NCBI GenBank assembly: GCA_029862165.1
Contig: JAOTXU010000009.1
Location: 65,497 to 129,496, forward strand
DNA: 64,000 bases
Direction: 5' to 3'
DNA from: Gammaproteobacteria bacterium
GTDB taxonomy: Bacteria > Pseudomonadota > Gammaproteobacteria > Steroidobacterales > JABDKV01
The notes beneath the pieces were generated by a model. It was not told where the DNA came from and ran no database searches. It was given only the letters and a program-made list of their open reading frames with translations. Numbering within the stretch: the first letter of the stretch is position 1; every line of letters begins with the position of its first letter. Shown piece by piece: positions 40,781-46,203 of the stretch. The translations under genes were made by a program, and so were the position numbers.

Positions 40781-42475
40781 TCAGGGGCACGGGGGTAACA
40801 CGCCGATTATCGAGAACGCAGTATTGAAAATGTTATCCGCGTAGCAGTTGCTCGACTCTGTCGAGAGTAACGCCAGATCTGACGCCGCGAAACCGAACGG
40901 GTTTGCGGGATCGACGTTTGTGCCGTTATTGATCACGGTATTCTCAATGACAACATTGCCGGTTGCCGAATGATCGGCCAAAAATTCAAGCGTGATCGAG
41001 GGATCGGCACCACAATCGAATGGCGTGCCCGTCACTGTCACGCAATAATCGGCAATCGCGATACCAACAAAGTCATTGTTCTCAACCAAATTGTTCGTGA
41101 TCATTGACTGGTCCACGCCGAGGTACAACACACCCGTGCCAGACGGTACGAACGACAGGATCGAACCCGGCCGGGCGGTGTTCGGTTTGTTGTTGTCATG
41201 GATATTGTTGTCGCGCAGGTCGATCCGTTTGGCGCCCGGCCGATCGTCGAAGATGTCAGGCAGCAACAGGATCGCAGCGCCGACGGTGTTGTTGAATGAC
41301 ACGTTGTGCGCGAGCAGTATGTCGTCGCTGTTGGAGACCTCGAAGCCGTTAACGTTGCCTGAAGCCACGCTGTGCTGGACTGTTACATTTTCGGAGGTTT
41401 CGACCCAGATGCCGCTGTCGAGATCCGAGCCGGTCGCCTTGCTGTGGCTGATCAGACCGTTCTTCGACAAAGTCGGGAATATGCCGTAGTTACGGTTGTC
41501 TATGGACTCGACGCCGATGATCTTGAAACCATCGACGTTTTCGGTGAATAGGCCGTTGTTGCGAAAGCCCTGGATCGCGATGTCGCGTATTTCGATGCCG
41601 TGCATCATCGGTTCACGCATCTTCAGACCCATCGGCACGCCCTCGTGCACCGGGAATGGTGGCGCCAGATCGGTATGACAACTCATGCAATCGGCGCGAT
41701 CTTCGGGTACGACCACAATGCCATTGCGTTGATTACCGGCATTCTCGAAAACGACGCGTTTGTCCTTTGTTCTTTGACCGATGAGACTGATACCGTTTTT
41801 TGTGATCGTCAGCCCGTTTGTCGGGTTCTGCAACTCACTGTAAGTGCCGGCCAGAATATAGATTCGTGTGCCGGGTCTGGCACGGTCGATCGCAGTCTGG
41901 ATCGAGTCACCGGGACGCACAACGATAGTGGGGCGGCGTAGTTGCCCCGGCGGCACATCGGCATCGTCATCAGGTGGCATAGGTGGAGGAGGCGGCGGTG
42001 GTTCGGTGCCGTCCGGATCGAGCGGGCCGATGCCATCGGGCGGTAGATTGTTCTCGCTAGTGCCGGCTCGTGAGTAGTATGTATTGAAGGCGCCTTCGGT
42101 CCAGCCGGGCTGTGTGCCTAGGCCGATCTCCGTGATGTTGTCGTGGCCACTGCCATCACCATCGGAGTTATCCAGCTCGACACAAAAAAACGCTTCCTCG
42201 TTGGAGACAACGCCGTTCGTGTTCAGATCGCAACCGAGATCCCCCAGCGCGCTACGAATATCCCATCCATAACCGTTCCACGGGCTGCCACCGGTTGCAT
42301 CGACGTGGCAAAGCTGGCAAACGGCATTGGTGCCGGAATCGGATGCATCGTAGCGGTCTTGCCAGGCATTCAGTGTCTGCGGAAAGGCGCCGGCGGCGCC
42401 GGCCGCCAGTAGTGCGCTGGCGCCTGTTGCGGCGACGAGCAACGCGCGCTGTAAACGTGAAATTGGAATAGTCAT
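40781..42475 (-). CDS. Secreted protein: N-terminal CXXCH module + Asp-rich Ca-binding-like loop + poly-Pro linker + right-handed parallel beta-helix carrying a second CXXCH
   Basis: Signal peptide ...GAAGA|FPQ. CQLCH at nt 42305-42319, DNSDGDGSGHDN, PPPPPPPMPP, and CMSCH at nt 41675-41689. The repetitive N/G/I/V-rich beta-helix repeats look NosD/pectate-lyase-like. Confidence 0.7.
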   Translation of the reverse strand: MTIPISRLQRALLVAATGASALLAAGAAGAFPQTLNAWQDRYDASDSGTNAVCQLCHVDATGGSPWNGYGWDIRSALGDLGCDLNTNGVVSNEEAFFCVELDNSDGDGSGHDNITEIGLGTQPGWTEGAFNTYYSRAGTSENNLPPDGIGPLDPDGTEPPPPPPPMPPDDDADVPPGQLRRPTIVVRPGDSIQTAIDRARPGTRIYILAGTYSELQNPTNGLTITKNGISLIGQRTKDKRVVFENAGNQRNGIVVVPEDRADCMSCHTDLAPPFPVHEGVPMGLKMREPMMHGIEIRDIAIQGFRNNGLFTENVDGFKIIGVESIDNRNYGIFPTLSKNGLISHSKATGSDLDSGIWVETSENVTVQHSVASGNVNGFEVSNSDDILLAHNVSFNNTVGAAILLLPDIFDDRPGAKRIDLRDNNIHDNNKPNTARPGSILSFVPSGTGVLYLGVDQSMITNNLVENNDFVGIAIADYCVTVTGTPFDCGADPSITLEFLADHSATGNVVIENTVINNGTNVDPANPFGFAASDLALLSTESSNCYADNIFNTAFSIIGVLPPCP

Positions 42476-42665
42476 CTATCTGTCCCCCCGGATAGTCATT
42501 GTTTCTGCTTGTTCTTGAAAGAGTAGGTGCAGATGGCGAGTTTTGCAAAGTCGAGTTGCTCGACAAAGAAGGTCTTTCCTAAGGTCCTCAAAAACCTGCA
42601 AATGGCAGGTTTAGCCGGAGATCTGTCGCCCCGTGGAAACAACTGAGCCTAAGGGACACCGCTCG

Positions 42666-45371
42666 CTATTCGAGATCCAGGACGCCGTCCAGATCGCGAT
42701 CTATGCCCATGCGCCGGCCCGAATTGTGTGGCGCGCACGTAAAAGTCAGGTGATTACCGGATTGTCTGCCGAGGTCTTTGAGTTGTTGCAGACTTAGCGA
42801 TTCCGCAGGCCGGTCCGTTTGAAAACTGTCGTCGTCAAGCCGCAGCGCACTGCGTTGCTCGAGATCCCACACGCCTTTTACGATCAGATCGCATTCGGGC
42901 AAGAATCCTGTCACCTGCGCGCGCGCAAACAGTAAATCAATACGCGCTTCAACGGTCGCAGGGCTGTCAGCCGAGAGCGTAATCTGTTGCCCGACGATTG
43001 GAGCCAACAAAGTATCGAAGGCAAAAATGAATGCCGCCAGTTGCGCCGGCTGCGCGGTGGTCTCGAACTGAAACTCGCCGGCATTGATCAACGAAAGCAG
43101 TCCGGTGCTGGACGCAGGTTCGCTCAAGCCAAAGCCCCGGATCTGCGGCTGATTCGATCCACCACGAAAAAAGCCGACCTTTTGATAGATATTGCGAAAG
43201 TGTGGAACCTTGAAGTCCTGTTCGTTGAAGCCGAGTACCGCAATAAGATTGCCGGCGTTGCCGAACTGGCCGTTGGTGGGGTCCAGCACATGACAGGTGT
43301 TGCAACCGACTGTGCCACCGGGCGAGGTAAACACACTTCTGTATACACGCCGGCCTTCTAGTTGGTCCGGTGTCAGGAAATTGTCTAGCGGACGATGCGG
43401 GTTCGGTGGATAACTCAGTTGCATCGCAAAATCGGTGAATGCCTGCATGTCGGCATCTTCCAACTGAAACTCACGGCCCATCAGTTTCTGAAAAGCCTGG
43501 TTGAATTCTTTGAAGGCCGCGGCCTCGCGTGGTTCGCCATTGACCGGATTTTCACCGGTGCGGTCGCCACGCCAGTGTAACGGGCCGTGATTGGGCATGC
43601 CGCGCAGACTTTGCGTGCCCTTAGGGCCTTTCATTGGGTGAAAGTTGCGTTGTCGGTCGAGGAAGTTGCCGGTAATGGGTCGTGTGAACGGTACTTCGCT
43701 CAGCGGATTGAACGCCTCCACCTCATCCGGGTTTCCCAGGTCCCAGGCCAGGTGATCGGTATCGCCAAACAGGTGGCAGGACGCACACGACGAATCACCC
43801 GCGCTCGACGTCAGGCTGGCGTCGTAGAGAAACGGTCTGCCGGCAATCAACGACGTCGGTTCGGGGTTGAACATCTGCACATGCGCCGATTCTTGGCCGT
43901 TCGCAAGATCAATTGTCGAAATACCGTTGTCGTAGCGCGTCAGCACGTAAGCTTGTTGCCGCGATTCGTCCAGCACAATTCCAGTAGGTCCGCCGCCGCT
44001 TACCGCAATGTGAATCTGGCCTGCCGGATCGAAGCTATTGTTTTCCAGATCATCGACGGCTATGGCCGCAATTTTGTTTGACCCCATCGCGACGACGTAA
44101 AGCGTCGTGCCGGTGCTGTTAACTGCCATCTCCATGGGTTGTGCGAGACTAAGCTGGCGCTCCGTCTGGGTACCAATTGTCCGGCTGCGATCTATGTGGC
44201 TGTTGAGATGTACCGGTAATACCGTTCCGTCGTTGCGCAATACGCTTATCCGGTTCTCAGCCAGGTGGCCTCGTACCGTTGAAGCGTTATCGCCAAAACC
44301 CTCGAAACGGATGTGATTGCGAGCCTCGGTATTACTGACGAAGACCGTGCCGCTTTGCGGACTCACGGCAATATTGAACAACGTGGTCCCGACGCCGCTC
44401 CACGCTCTCGTTTCGACCGGTGTGGCGGCCACGGCATCGATTTCGAACACGTCGAGATCCGGCAGGTTCAGACTTGCACGATTATCAAAAGGCCGGCCGG
44501 TTTCATCCACCCAGTTGTTGCCATCGAATTTGAGTATCAAAGCCGATAATGGCGCATTTATGCCCTCGACATTGCTGAACGGCGGCGCCTTGGTGAGAGT
44601 GGGAATATCGCGAACGACGGTGGTGCGGTTACCGGAGTTCAGGATGGCAGCATAAACACGTGAGCCGTCCGCGTTGCGTGCCAGCGCCCGGGGTGTGTCA
44701 CCAAACAGGGTCACAATCTGAGTTGGGGTGCCGCCGAGTTGGTTACCGAGGTTATCGCGTTCGAACACCCAGACATCTGCACGGCCTATGTTGGGCGTGT
44801 TTAACTGTGGGTCTACGGGACTGTTCTGACCGCGGTGAGCGGTTGTCACAAAAGCCCGGTCGAAATTGGCTCCGGCGAACACAATATCGCGTGGCTCATC
44901 GCCCACGAGCAGCGTTCGGATCACACGTGGTGGCGACTCGGAAAAACTGACGACGCTGATACTGTCGGACAGATGATTGACGACCCATGCCTGATCGCCG
45001 CTGATCGCAACGGCAATCGGTTCCATTCCGACAGGTATTGATTGGCTGTGCGTTAGCTGATCGCCTGTGATCGAAAAAACTTCCAGTCGATTGTCTGGTG
45101 TATTGACCGCGAACAACCGCGCGCCGTCGTGACTCAGCGCCAGTGGCCGGACCTGACCGGATTCGAAGGCGATAAAGGGATCCAGGTTGGCAGGCGTTGC
45201 GCTCAGCGTAGCCGGGGGTGGCAGACTGGTTCTCGTCAGTACTCCCGTTAGCGGTCCGGGTAAGCCAGCGACGGGGCCCGGGTCAGGCGCGACGCCACCA
45301 CCACCACCACCGCCACCGCCACAGCCGGCAAGGGCCAAGACGAGCAACGGGAACAAATGGAGCTTCTGCAT
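42666..45371 (-). CDS. Secreted lipoprotein: beta-propeller (YVTN/lactonase-like) repeats + C-terminal di-haem cytochrome c peroxidase-like domain
   Basis: Lipobox LALAGC followed by Gly9. The repeats have propeller character. CASCH at nt 43773-43787 and CNTCH at nt 43290-43304. The C-terminus is Asp-rich (DRDLDGVLDLE). Confidence 0.7.
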   Translation of the reverse strand: MQKLHLFPLLVLALAGCGGGGGGGGGVAPDPGPVAGLPGPLTGVLTRTSLPPPATLSATPANLDPFIAFESGQVRPLALSHDGARLFAVNTPDNRLEVFSITGDQLTHSQSIPVGMEPIAVAISGDQAWVVNHLSDSISVVSFSESPPRVIRTLLVGDEPRDIVFAGANFDRAFVTTAHRGQNSPVDPQLNTPNIGRADVWVFERDNLGNQLGGTPTQIVTLFGDTPRALARNADGSRVYAAILNSGNRTTVVRDIPTLTKAPPFSNVEGINAPLSALILKFDGNNWVDETGRPFDNRASLNLPDLDVFEIDAVAATPVETRAWSGVGTTLFNIAVSPQSGTVFVSNTEARNHIRFEGFGDNASTVRGHLAENRISVLRNDGTVLPVHLNSHIDRSRTIGTQTERQLSLAQPMEMAVNSTGTTLYVVAMGSNKIAAIAVDDLENNSFDPAGQIHIAVSGGGPTGIVLDESRQQAYVLTRYDNGISTIDLANGQESAHVQMFNPEPTSLIAGRPFLYDASLTSSAGDSSCASCHLFGDTDHLAWDLGNPDEVEAFNPLSEVPFTRPITGNFLDRQRNFHPMKGPKGTQSLRGMPNHGPLHWRGDRTGENPVNGEPREAAAFKEFNQAFQKLMGREFQLEDADMQAFTDFAMQLSYPPNPHRPLDNFLTPDQLEGRRVYRSVFTSPGGTVGCNTCHVLDPTNGQFGNAGNLIAVLGFNEQDFKVPHFRNIYQKVGFFRGGSNQPQIRGFGLSEPASSTGLLSLINAGEFQFETTAQPAQLAAFIFAFDTLLAPIVGQQITLSADSPATVEARIDLLFARAQVTGFLPECDLIVKGVWDLEQRSALRLDDDSFQTDRPAESLSLQQLKDLGRQSGNHLTFTCAPHNSGRRMGIDRDLDGVLDLE

Positions 45372-45698: not shown

Positions 45699-45830
45699 TT
45701 TGCATTATGTCAGCAACACAATAAGAACCATGTCATTGGAGTTGCCACCGTTCCAGAACCCGCCACCATTACCCTGTTAGGACTTGGTCTCGCCGGAATT
45801 GGCTTTGCAGGGCGCAGAAAGAACGCCTGA
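45699..45830 (+). pseudogene. Start-less PEP-CTERM sorting-signal fragment
   Basis: A 43-codon open frame after TAG at 45696 has no ATG/GTG/TTG start. It ends ...GVATVPEPATITLLGLGLAGIGFAGRRKNA*, a textbook PEP-CTERM anchor, and is followed by a terminator. Confidence 0.5.
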
Positions 45831-45854: not shown

Positions 45855-45881
45855 GCCCCGGCTCAGTCCGGGGTTTTTTTG
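45855..45881 (+). terminator. Rho-independent terminator
   Basis: CCCCGG-CTCAGT-CCGGGG hairpin followed by T7. Confidence 0.6.
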
Positions 45882-45889
45882 TCAAAGGG

Positions 45890-45963
45890 TGGAGCGGGTG
45901 ATGGGAATCGAACCCACGTTATCTGCTTGGGAAGCAGAAGTTCTACCATTGAACTACACCCGC
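45890..45963 (-). tRNA. glyU: tRNA-Gly (anticodon CCC), CCA encoded
   Basis: Reverse complement is GCGGGTGTAGTTCAATGGTAGAACTTCTGCTTCCCAAGCAGATAACGTGGGTTCGATTCCCATCACCCGCTCCA. It folds by hand into a cloverleaf with a 7-bp acceptor stem, anticodon loop TTCCCAA and T-loop TTCGATT. Confidence 0.9.
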
Positions 45964-46203
45964 GCTTTGTAAGTAAGATTGTAGCTGGCATCCTTGCCTT
46001 CGCGCCGCGTATTTTTGACCGCCGGCCCGGCCCTTCATGGCCGGGCGTTCGCCGCTATTCGCGGCTCACCCATTGAACTACACCCGCGCTTTGTAAGTAA
46101 GATTGTAGCCGGCATCCTTGCCTTCGCGCCGCGTATTTTTGACCGCCGGCCCGGCCCTTCATGGCCAGGCGTTCGCCGCTATTCGCGGCTCACCCATTGA
46201 ACT
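45946..46203. repeat. Tandem direct repeat, 124-nt period, 2 full copies + 10-nt third start; each unit begins with tRNA-Gly nt 1-18
   Basis: 45946-46069 versus 46070-46193 differ at 2 positions (45986 T/C and 46043 G/A). 46194-46203 repeats the first 10 nt again. Confidence 0.9.

Follow-up and report, generated by a model that had tools for sequence, protein, structure and literature searches.

A 64,000-nucleotide (nt) stretch of a gammaproteobacterial genome of the Steroidobacterales lineage (contig JAOTXU010000009.1, positions 65,497 to 129,496; hereafter the window) carries two adjacent genes whose predicted products are exported and contain the CXXCH motif of c-type haem attachment. We refer to the upstream protein of 901 amino acids (aa) as pA and to the downstream 564-aa protein as pB. 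A preliminary description, made from the sequence letters and a list of open reading frames (ORFs), had reported both ORFs and four CXXCH motifs, and had read the pair as an operon encoding a single extracytoplasmic redox machine. Both ORFs were found, both on the minus strand, and motif coordinates recomputed from the ORF starts agreed exactly with those described (Table 1). Calculated from the Cys and His content of each protein, the number of CXXCH motifs expected by chance is 0.0013 in pA and 0.0031 in pB, and pA and pB alone have the motif out of 49 ORFs in the window that reach 200 aa. All four motifs are also kept in homologues (38 for pA; 22 for the first and 36 of 36 for the second motif of pB), and this invariance combined with a chance expectation of about 0.001-0.003 per protein indicates that the motifs did not arise by chance. 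Export together with a conserved CXXCH is the generic mark of a c-type cytochrome, and both proteins bear it. We consider it probable that pA and pB are independent, individually conserved exported c-type haem proteins that are neighbours only in this gammaproteobacterial lineage, where they may be co-transcribed, and that they do not form a dedicated two-component system.

Table 1. Features of the pA-pB locus and its upstream flank (window coordinates)
Feature	Position	Strand	Basis or remarks
pB ORF, 564 aa	40781-42475	-	exported; N-terminal CQLCH module, Pro-rich linker, beta-helix with CxxCH loop
pB Sec signal peptide, residues 1-30	42386-42475	-	...AAGAAGA/FPQ, cleavage after AGA; A28, A30, F31 invariant
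pB N-terminal haem module (putative), residues 31-140	42056-42385	-	CQLCH...GGSPWNGYGWD...NSDGDGSGxDNxTE...QPGW; motif residues invariant; AF2 pLDDT <50
pB first CXXCH, C53-Q-L-C-H57	42305-42319	-	invariant in 22 homologues; in all full-length genome homologues
pB EF-hand/dockerin-like Asp-rich loop NSDGDGSGHDNITE, residues 103-116	42128-42169	-	S104, E116 invariant
pB Pro-rich linker, residues ~144-178, hinge EPPPPPPPMPP	41942-42046	-	PPPPPPP run conserved; AF2 pLDDT <50
pB right-handed parallel beta-helix, residues 181-564	40784-41935	-	Pfam Beta_helix 48.9 and NosD 38.6 bits, above threshold; AF2 pLDDT 80-97
pB inter-coil insertion loop with APPF motif, residues 258-295	41591-41704	-	C263-M-S-C-H267 at nt 41675-41689
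Strong GC-rich hairpin, 20 nt past pB stop codon	40730-40761	-	-29.9 kcal/mol, z = -3.41, 0/200 shuffles equal
Weak hairpin (8 bp) and U-run in pA-pB spacer	42586-42612	-	-17.6 kcal/mol over 61 nt, z = -1.1, not significant
pA ORF, 901 aa	42666-45371	-	outer-membrane-type lipoprotein (predicted): beta-propeller, CCP/MauG-like di-haem domain, C-terminal domain
pA lipoprotein signal peptide, lipobox LAGC (Cys17; LALAGC), Gly9 tether, residues 1-26	45294-45371	-	read from sequence
pA beta-propeller, 7 or 8 blades, residues ~65-505	43857-45179	-	Pfam Lactonase PF10282, 7.2e-11; AF2 pLDDT mostly >90
pA first CXXCH, C529-A-S-C-H533	43773-43787	-	context GRPFLYDASLTSSAGDSSCASCH; aligned to HZS-gamma first haem site CASCH
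pA HWRGDR, residues 599-604 (W600 invariant)	43560-43577	-	all six residues invariant in 38-sequence alignment
pA second CXXCH, C690-N-T-C-H694	43290-43304	-	invariant; hhalign to P0369 CCP second haem motif, E 4.4e-5
pA FKVPHFRNIY, residues 720-729	43185-43214	-	hhalign counterpart of CCP FKVPTLRNV
pA C-terminal domain, residues ~790-901	42666-43004	-	ends in EF-hand-like loop DRDLDGVLDLE; AF2 pLDDT 80-98
Promoter-like site TTGAAA-17-CATCAT, 46 nt 5' of pA start codon	45417-45445	-	consensus scan, 9/12 matches
Start-less frame ending VPEPATITLLGLGLAGIGFAGRRKNA, then stop	45699-45830	+	PEP-CTERM-like tail, stop-to-stop
tRNA-Gly(CCC)	45890-45963	-	also found by Rfam

Architecture and relatives of pA

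The preliminary description had divided pA into a glycine tether, propeller-type repeats and a CXXCH-bearing C-terminal part, a division that proved largely right by Pfam, profile, fold and hhalign comparisons. The N-terminus reads MQKLHLFPLLVLALAGC and continues into nine glycines, so that the lipoprotein signal and Gly9 tether are present as described, and a lipobox followed by glycines is also the consensus (LxACGGGG) of the family in an alignment of 38 homologues at 49-76% identity. Under the standard Lol sorting rule, a Gly at position +2 after the lipobox Cys leads to outer-membrane targeting; this residue is Gly in pA, which would accordingly be located in the outer membrane. The propeller passes the Pfam Lactonase threshold with 42.3 bits, and the AlphaFold2 (AF2) model of the whole protein (pLDDT 77.8, pTM 0.86) consists of the propeller, a haem region that is helical and has loops of low confidence, and a C-terminal domain modelled with confidence. 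In the C-terminal family consensus, GIDRDLDGxLDGDE, D891 is invariant and D895 and D901 are nearly so. Asp-rich, calcium-loop-like motifs had been noted in both proteins; they are indeed found at the end of pA and before the hinge of pB.

The two CXXCH motifs of pA lie 161 residues apart, and typical CCP/MauG proteins (cytochrome c peroxidase, CCP) have a spacing of about 145-170 residues, in agreement with the di-haem spacing suggested earlier. C529, C532 and H533 of the first motif and C690, C693 and H694 of the second are invariant in the 38 homologues. The context of the first motif is typical of the first haem in the group formed by CCP, MauG and the gamma subunit of hydrazine synthase (HZS), and pA has the GRxFLYDxxLSxxGxxSCASCH-type first site of the CCP/MauG/MbnH superfamily (PF03150). 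W600 in HWRGDR resembles the Trp of FWDGR between the CCP/MauG haems, the equivalence being one of motif resemblance and not of a tool alignment. FHPMKGP and FKVPHFRNxY are invariant or nearly so (K721, P723, R726 and Y729 without exception). When pA was compared by hhalign with the CCP domain of P0369, a relative of pB described below, the second CXXCH and the pair FKVPHFRN/FKVPTLRN were aligned (E 4.4e-5, probability 69%). In contrast to the CCP/MauG superfamily, the haem part of pA is fused behind a propeller of ~440 residues and is lipid-anchored, and its match to Pfam CCP_MauG (PF03150) stays under threshold (20.5 versus 25.6 bits) and covers residues 511-548 only, at the first haem site.

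The nearest solved relatives of pA are hydrazine synthase's beta and gamma subunits. The pA family profile matched the YVTN S-layer propeller 1l0q (2.2e-16) and, in colinear order, HZS-beta (3.9e-8) and HZS-gamma (1.4e-7), with residues 72-170 falling on 5c2v_B and residues 490-542 and 621-688 on 5c2v_C; the best PDB fold match of the pA model was HZS beta as well (5c2v_B, E 2.5e-16, TMt 0.72). Like pA, hydrazine synthase (Kuenenia 5c2v, with beta and gamma fused in Scalindua) has a YVTN-type propeller followed by a CCP-like di-haem domain, and the first-haem context SCASCH...WDLG is common to both. By contrast, pA shares ~14% identity with hydrazine synthase, is without an alpha-subunit partner, belongs to a family found in aerobes, possesses an additional lipoprotein anchor and C-terminal domain, and has, by reading of the motif, the Trp of HWRGDR in the place of HZS-gamma His144. 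The weak NCBIfam matches of pA to hydrazine_BC, hydrazine_beta and hydrazine_gamma are below the curated cutoffs (26.4 versus 1250 bits for NF052342, 21.8 versus 560 for NF052340 and 20.8 versus 625 for NF052341), no HZS-alpha-like gene was found nearby, and pB gave no hydrazine synthase match. Identity of pA as a hydrazine synthase was rejected on its score (26 versus 1250 bits). A 2025 study described distant homologues of fused HZS beta-gamma as "highly prevalent in environmental bacteria" with both haem motifs kept, reported that the CCP/MauG Trp replaces gamma-His144 in the non-anammox homologues, and judged these to be without the residues required for hydrazine synthesis (PMC12758564). 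This description fits pA.

A database search for pA reached saturation with more than 7800 homologues. The best 120 are all at least 50% identical to it and mostly full-length, and their sources call several of them "YncE family protein" or "YVTN beta-propeller". The former name reflects the propeller repeats only; pA scores far under the YncE cutoff (NF052280, 18 versus 400 bits), and YncE identity was rejected. pA is a member of a large, known but uncharacterised propeller plus di-haem family of the same broad kind as fused HZS beta-gamma. No match in this search exceeded 76% identity, though the 901-aa gene is called at loci L051 and L052; tblastn recovered pA residues ~62-901 there at 100% identity, and the self-match was apparently either passed over or filtered out by the word-index search.

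The pB beta-helix and its N-terminal module

The signal peptide, calcium-loop-like motif and poly-Pro hinge ascribed to pB are all present, and its reading as a NosD/pectate-lyase-type beta-helix with an embedded CXXCH was borne out by Pfam, AF2, Foldseek and conservation. An identical protein in NCBI (P0121), from a gammaproteobacterial metagenome-assembled genome, is named "right-handed parallel beta-helix repeat-containing protein". The AF2 model shows a confident helix from residue 181 to 564 that is broken only at residues 261-274 (pLDDT <50), which form the CMSCH loop; the first 150 residues of the protein are not modelled with confidence. C263, C266 and H267 are kept in 36 of 36 genome homologues down to 47% identity, a count from which the wrong-frame ORFs of four high-GC genomes (L027, L028, L029 and L037) were left out, and the loop also occurs in short forms without the N-terminal module in Sorangium, Marinobacteraceae and Trueperaceae. 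Across homologues the loop follows the pattern C-[MLTS]-x-C-H...APPF, with MS, MG, MD, MA, MQ, LS, LE, LG, TS or SE at the two x positions. That the exact CxxCH is kept while the x residues vary points to haem attachment rather than a CxxC disulfide. Beyond the motif histidines, no His or Met is conserved in the pB clade, so the sixth ligand of either pB haem would be open or unusual.

The best PDB matches of the pB helix in Foldseek were the mannuronan epimerases AlgE4 and AlgE6 (E 8e-10, target-normalised TM 0.59-0.61, at most 16% identity), and further matches included alginate lyases, polygalacturonases and tailspikes. No haem protein appears among the listed PDB matches, and none of AlgE4, AlgE6 and the PL6 alginate lyases carries haem. 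Mannuronan epimerases possess the catalytic motif YG(F/I)DPH(D/E); at the look-alike motif pB reads NYGIFPTLS instead, lacking Asp and His as judged by inspection rather than by residue-level structural alignment. NosD identity was rejected as well, with 18.5 bits against a cutoff of 300 (TIGR04247) and no nos genes in the locus gene list. To our knowledge, right-handed parallel beta-helices do not carry c-type haem; we found no structural or literature precedent for a c-type haem site built into this fold, and literature searches on TIGR03805, TIGR03806, SO_2930 and beta-helix plus CXXCH returned nothing on function. The Cache sensor domain is a non-cytochrome fold that acquired a c-haem motif (PMC12889525).

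Among catalogued beta-helix proteins, pB is a member of a sister clade of the TIGR03805 family. It scores 120.5 bits, under the cutoff of 141.5; P0244, a short form with the CxxCH loop and 56% identity to pB, scores 130.5, and more distant relatives pass the cutoff (P0261, 143.7; P0272, 172.6; P0369, 226.8 bits). The motifs YG(I/L)FP, D(S/A)(G/A)I(W/Y)V, G(F/L)E(V/I)ENS and DNN(R/K)PN are common to pB and TIGR03805 (SO_2930-like), as is export, but the haem motif of pB lies inside the helix itself, in an insertion loop. An exhaustive HMMER search against 1.8 billion representatives yielded 1842 pB relatives; among the 37 inspected, the CxxCH loop is found in the four closest and is absent from the 33 more distant, mostly TIGR03805-type proteins. 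In the position of this loop P0261, P0268, P0279, P0296 and P0298 have a conserved E-H-P-P-C-(G/A), some of them PPCG alone, and across the TIGR03805-type family the inter-coil loop may serve as a site whose cofactor or metal varies. In P0369 (794 aa) a CCP/MauG/MbnH-like di-haem domain (PF03150, 3e-48) is fused to the TIGR03805 helix, and in P0267 (606 aa) a c7-like multihaem domain with four CXXCH motifs is fused to a helix of TIGR03805 type. These two fusions indicate that the helix family recruits c-haem repeatedly, which suggests a recurrent functional link between it and c-type haem domains. The TIGR03805 family is described as paired or fused with a CXXCH-containing partner, TIGR03806; pA gave no TIGR03806 match at E<=1, and the 45 pB-related loci surveyed below had no conserved neighbour.

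The CQLCH module at the N-terminus of pB matches no Pfam cytochrome family and gave a weak match to NF041762, the GEGP di-haem protein family; when used in isolation as a query it returned 13 short fragments only, with no architecture information. Among the genome loci, the module precedes glucose/sorbosone dehydrogenase (GSDH) propellers of the pyrroloquinoline quinone (PQQ) type (PF07995, 1e-29 to 6e-40) in proteins at L044:9971-11716, L046:9998-11830 and L047:4047-5789. Two further proteins contain it: the one at L045 also has PKD repeats and, at its C-terminus, cytochrome c domains, and the one at L043 is short (292 aa) and has no Pfam match. Such a distribution suggests a portable haem domain serving different catalytic partners. 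In its Asp-rich loop N103, D105, D107, G108, D112 and N113 are nearly invariant, the loop recurs in the GSDH-fused copies (e.g. DSDGNGISNLDE), and it may bind calcium. Quinohaemoproteins combine a PQQ dehydrogenase with a tethered cytochrome c domain, and by analogy the pB module, being one that is found before GSDH-type PQQ propellers, could act as a tethered electron relay; unlike theirs, it is joined to a beta-helix and is without a conserved distal Met or His ligand. About 1 kb upstream of one pB homologue, a separate 1223-aa protein (L007:5156-8827) combines GSDH, a weak cytochrome-c match, PA14 and a putative Ig domain.

Genomic contexts of the two genes

The view of the pair as one redox machine, for which conservation of both genes elsewhere had been proposed as a check, did not hold up. 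We scanned 45 loci with pB relatives, taking one genome per species and flanks of up to 10 kb to either side. By tblastn and profile hidden Markov models (HMMs), a pA-like or CCP-like ORF was found at 0 of the 45, and all-against-all clustering of the neighbouring ORFs gave no conserved pB neighbour of any kind. Reciprocally, six loci of pA homologues (50-76% identity) had no beta-helix gene. At the syntenic locus L050, MarC, TrmB, the DEAD helicase and pA (77%) are kept, with pA inverted and an M28 peptidase in the place of pB, and pB orthologues at 79-82% identity occupy unrelated contexts. The pair itself was seen only in the same organism, on contigs where every protein matches its counterpart in the window at 100% identity. 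The adjacency of pA and pB is lineage-specific, and a conserved pair was rejected on the combined evidence of tblastn, profile HMMs, neighbour clustering and the six pA contexts. Because the genes are not co-conserved, the paired-machine reading fails, and pA and pB represent two separate uncharacterised families.

Other genes were seen next to pA homologues. Behind the closest pA orthologues lie genes for different exported proteins: an octahaem (8 CXXCH) TPR protein unrelated to pB (L050:10909-13248) and a 622-aa protein with no Pfam match, whose last residue is aromatic (...ATYRW) and which resembles an outer-membrane barrel (L048:10807-12675). Downstream of two homologues at ~60% identity, out of seven contexts, lies a convergent gene for a CadC-like regulator (L053:8788-10821 and L054:8767-10863) with a Trans_reg_C DNA-binding domain and a Tricorn/PD40-type propeller; in this subclade the regulator may be a sensor connected with pA.

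Within the window, pA and pB are co-oriented with a spacer of 190 bp. The hairpin in the spacer could be a leaky terminator and was not called by a consensus terminator scan; the strong hairpin behind pB, uncalled because no U-tract follows it, is likely a transcript end or stabiliser. The only promoter-like site found by consensus scan for the pA/pB stretch is upstream of pA, with none clear in the spacer, and it is weak evidence because shuffled sequence would give as many sites of this kind as the region contains. Since both genes run in one direction, across a gap of 190 bp in which neither a terminator nor a promoter is clear, they may be co-expressed here.

Beyond the pair, the immediate neighbours are the tRNA and an acetyltransferase gene, and the flanks consist of housekeeping genes (ThiS/ThiG, TrmB and the DEAD helicase). 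The flanking tRNA and the start-less PEP-CTERM tail that had been described are both present, but with housekeeping flanks and a flat GC content the accessory-region context inferred from them is weakly supported. A horizontal-transfer island was rejected, GC content and skew being flat across 36-50 kb and giving it no compositional support. An Rfam scan of 40-47 kb found nothing besides the tRNA. The start-less frame closes with VATVPEPATITLLGLGLAGIGFAGRRKNA and a stop codon, a PEP-CTERM-type sorting tail by its sequence, and looks like what is left of a gene for a PEP-CTERM protein; a GC hairpin at 45855-45874, bordered by T/A runs, lies between it and the tRNA. Next to tRNA-Gly, a 124-bp tandem repeat (45946-46203, 2.1 copies, 98% identical) is made of units in which the upstream leader of the tRNA-Gly(CCC) gene is joined to the initial ~18 nt of that gene, so that immediately upstream of the intact tRNA gene there are two fragments of it, truncated to the 5' part. 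This repeat could be a duplicated promoter-leader region or a recombination scar.

Competing readings and proposed roles

A dedicated two-component redox machine encoded as an operon would account for the shared strand, the short spacer with a weak hairpin inside it and a strong one after pB, and the export and conserved CXXCH of both proteins; the fusion of a true CCP/MauG domain to a TIGR03805 helix in P0369, and the exported multihaem protein that follows the pA orthologue at L050, are also in its favour. We nevertheless regard it as very unlikely, since no pA-like or CCP-like gene accompanies any of the 45 pB-related loci and no beta-helix gene any of the six pA loci, L050 is syntenic but without pB, the surroundings of pB orthologues at about 80% identity are unrelated, and pA has no match to TIGR03806, the partner family of TIGR03805. 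A reading of pA as a hydrazine-synthase-like or other nitrogen-oxide-transforming enzyme, instead of a peroxidase/MauG-type enzyme that uses an oxidant, starts from its nearest solved relatives by profile and fold and from the weak NCBIfam matches. It appears extremely unlikely in view of the large gap between the best of these scores and its cutoff, the lack of an HZS-alpha-like gene nearby, the occurrence of the family in aerobic heterotrophs such as Cellvibrio, and the Trp that the motif places at the His144 position, as in homologues without the residues for hydrazine synthesis (PMC12758564).

For pB, the CxxCH of the helix might instead be a structural disulfide or a metal (Cu, Zn, Fe) site in an ordinary carbohydrate-active or adhesin-type helix, with any haem confined to the N-terminal module. 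The haem-free epimerases, lyases, polygalacturonases and tailspikes among the best fold matches are in favour of this, as is the lack of a conserved His or Met for the sixth position; the related clade has EHPPCG at the loop, resembling a metal or thiol site, and pB contains six further invariant Cys, probably in disulfides. However, the Ccm system requires little beyond an accessible CXXCH, pB is Sec-exported, and the exact C-x-x-C-H is retained in all 36 homologues while its x positions vary. In addition, the loop is the single segment that AF2 fails to place without a cofactor, the beta-helix family is repeatedly associated with c-haem modules, and the Cache sensor domain offers a precedent for a non-cytochrome fold gaining such a motif (PMC12889525). 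We therefore consider a non-haem site rather unlikely.

Several observations weigh against taking pA and pB as independent c-type haem proteins. The co-orientation, the 190-bp gap and the lack of a clear terminator or promoter between the genes leave room for co-expression, a CCP-beta-helix fusion exists elsewhere (P0369), and behind the nearest syntenic pA orthologue, that of L050, there is likewise a gene for an exported cytochrome, the octahaem-TPR protein; that CCP-like enzymes are loosely linked in function to cytochrome or beta-helix partners, at which the latter two observations hint, is in our estimate improbable. At the level of the proteins, pA does not reach the curated cutoffs for CCP_MauG, YncE or hydrazine synthase, AF2 is weak in the pA haem-domain loops and in the N-terminal module of pB, and haem attachment at all four CXXCH motifs is deduced from sequence. 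Finally, hhalign sets Q730 of pA opposite the Met of the PYMHNG motif in the CCP domain of P0369. We take this Met to be the CCP Met ligand, and a classical peroxidase mechanism for pA is therefore not assured.

With pA and pB understood as independent exported haem proteins, pA would be a lipid-anchored periplasmic or surface oxidoreductase. Its first haem (C529/H533) would be the reactive, oxidant-activating centre, as in CCP, MauG and HZS-gamma, its second haem (C690/H694) would relay electrons via the conserved Trp600, and the propeller face may present a substrate or partner. pB would be a Sec-exported two-haem protein in which a mobile N-terminal haem module on a Pro-rich tether shuttles electrons to or from a second haem, bound covalently on the insertion loop of the helix. 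With its open or unusual coordination, the loop haem would be the likely working site, because no distal His or Met is conserved for it and its scaffold is of a polymer-binding type; it would lie beside the family-wide polar helix motifs YGIFP, DSGIW, NGFEVSNS and DNNKPNT, on a kind of scaffold that binds extended polymers, e.g. glycans. More speculatively, the pB clade could represent a new class of c-haem protein, in which an insertion-loop haem on a beta-helix, with an open or unusual sixth position, is fed by a tethered module and acts as a redox enzyme on an extended polymeric or insoluble substrate, a proposal that we put forward tentatively and hold to be possible rather than likely.

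Part of this is already known: the family of pA is widespread, the helix family of pB is catalogued, and there is a precedent for non-cytochrome folds gaining CXXCH (PMC12889525). pB is a variant of that catalogued beta-helix family with a putative haem motif built into the helix and strictly conserved. The lineage-specific adjacency of the two genes removes a tempting but unsupported call of a new redox machine. The redox character of both families is invisible in current annotations because their members are named by scaffold only, as "YncE family protein" or "right-handed parallel beta-helix repeat-containing protein". The propeller-di-haem family, with its more than 7800 database matches, is relevant to the evolution of hydrazine synthase because it is related to HZS beta-gamma. 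If the beta-helix CxxCH indeed binds haem, c-type haem chemistry would extend to a fold normally tied to glycan binding and cleavage. The CQLCH module, which pB and PQQ dehydrogenases have in common, would be a portable domain for electron transfer that is newly recognised.

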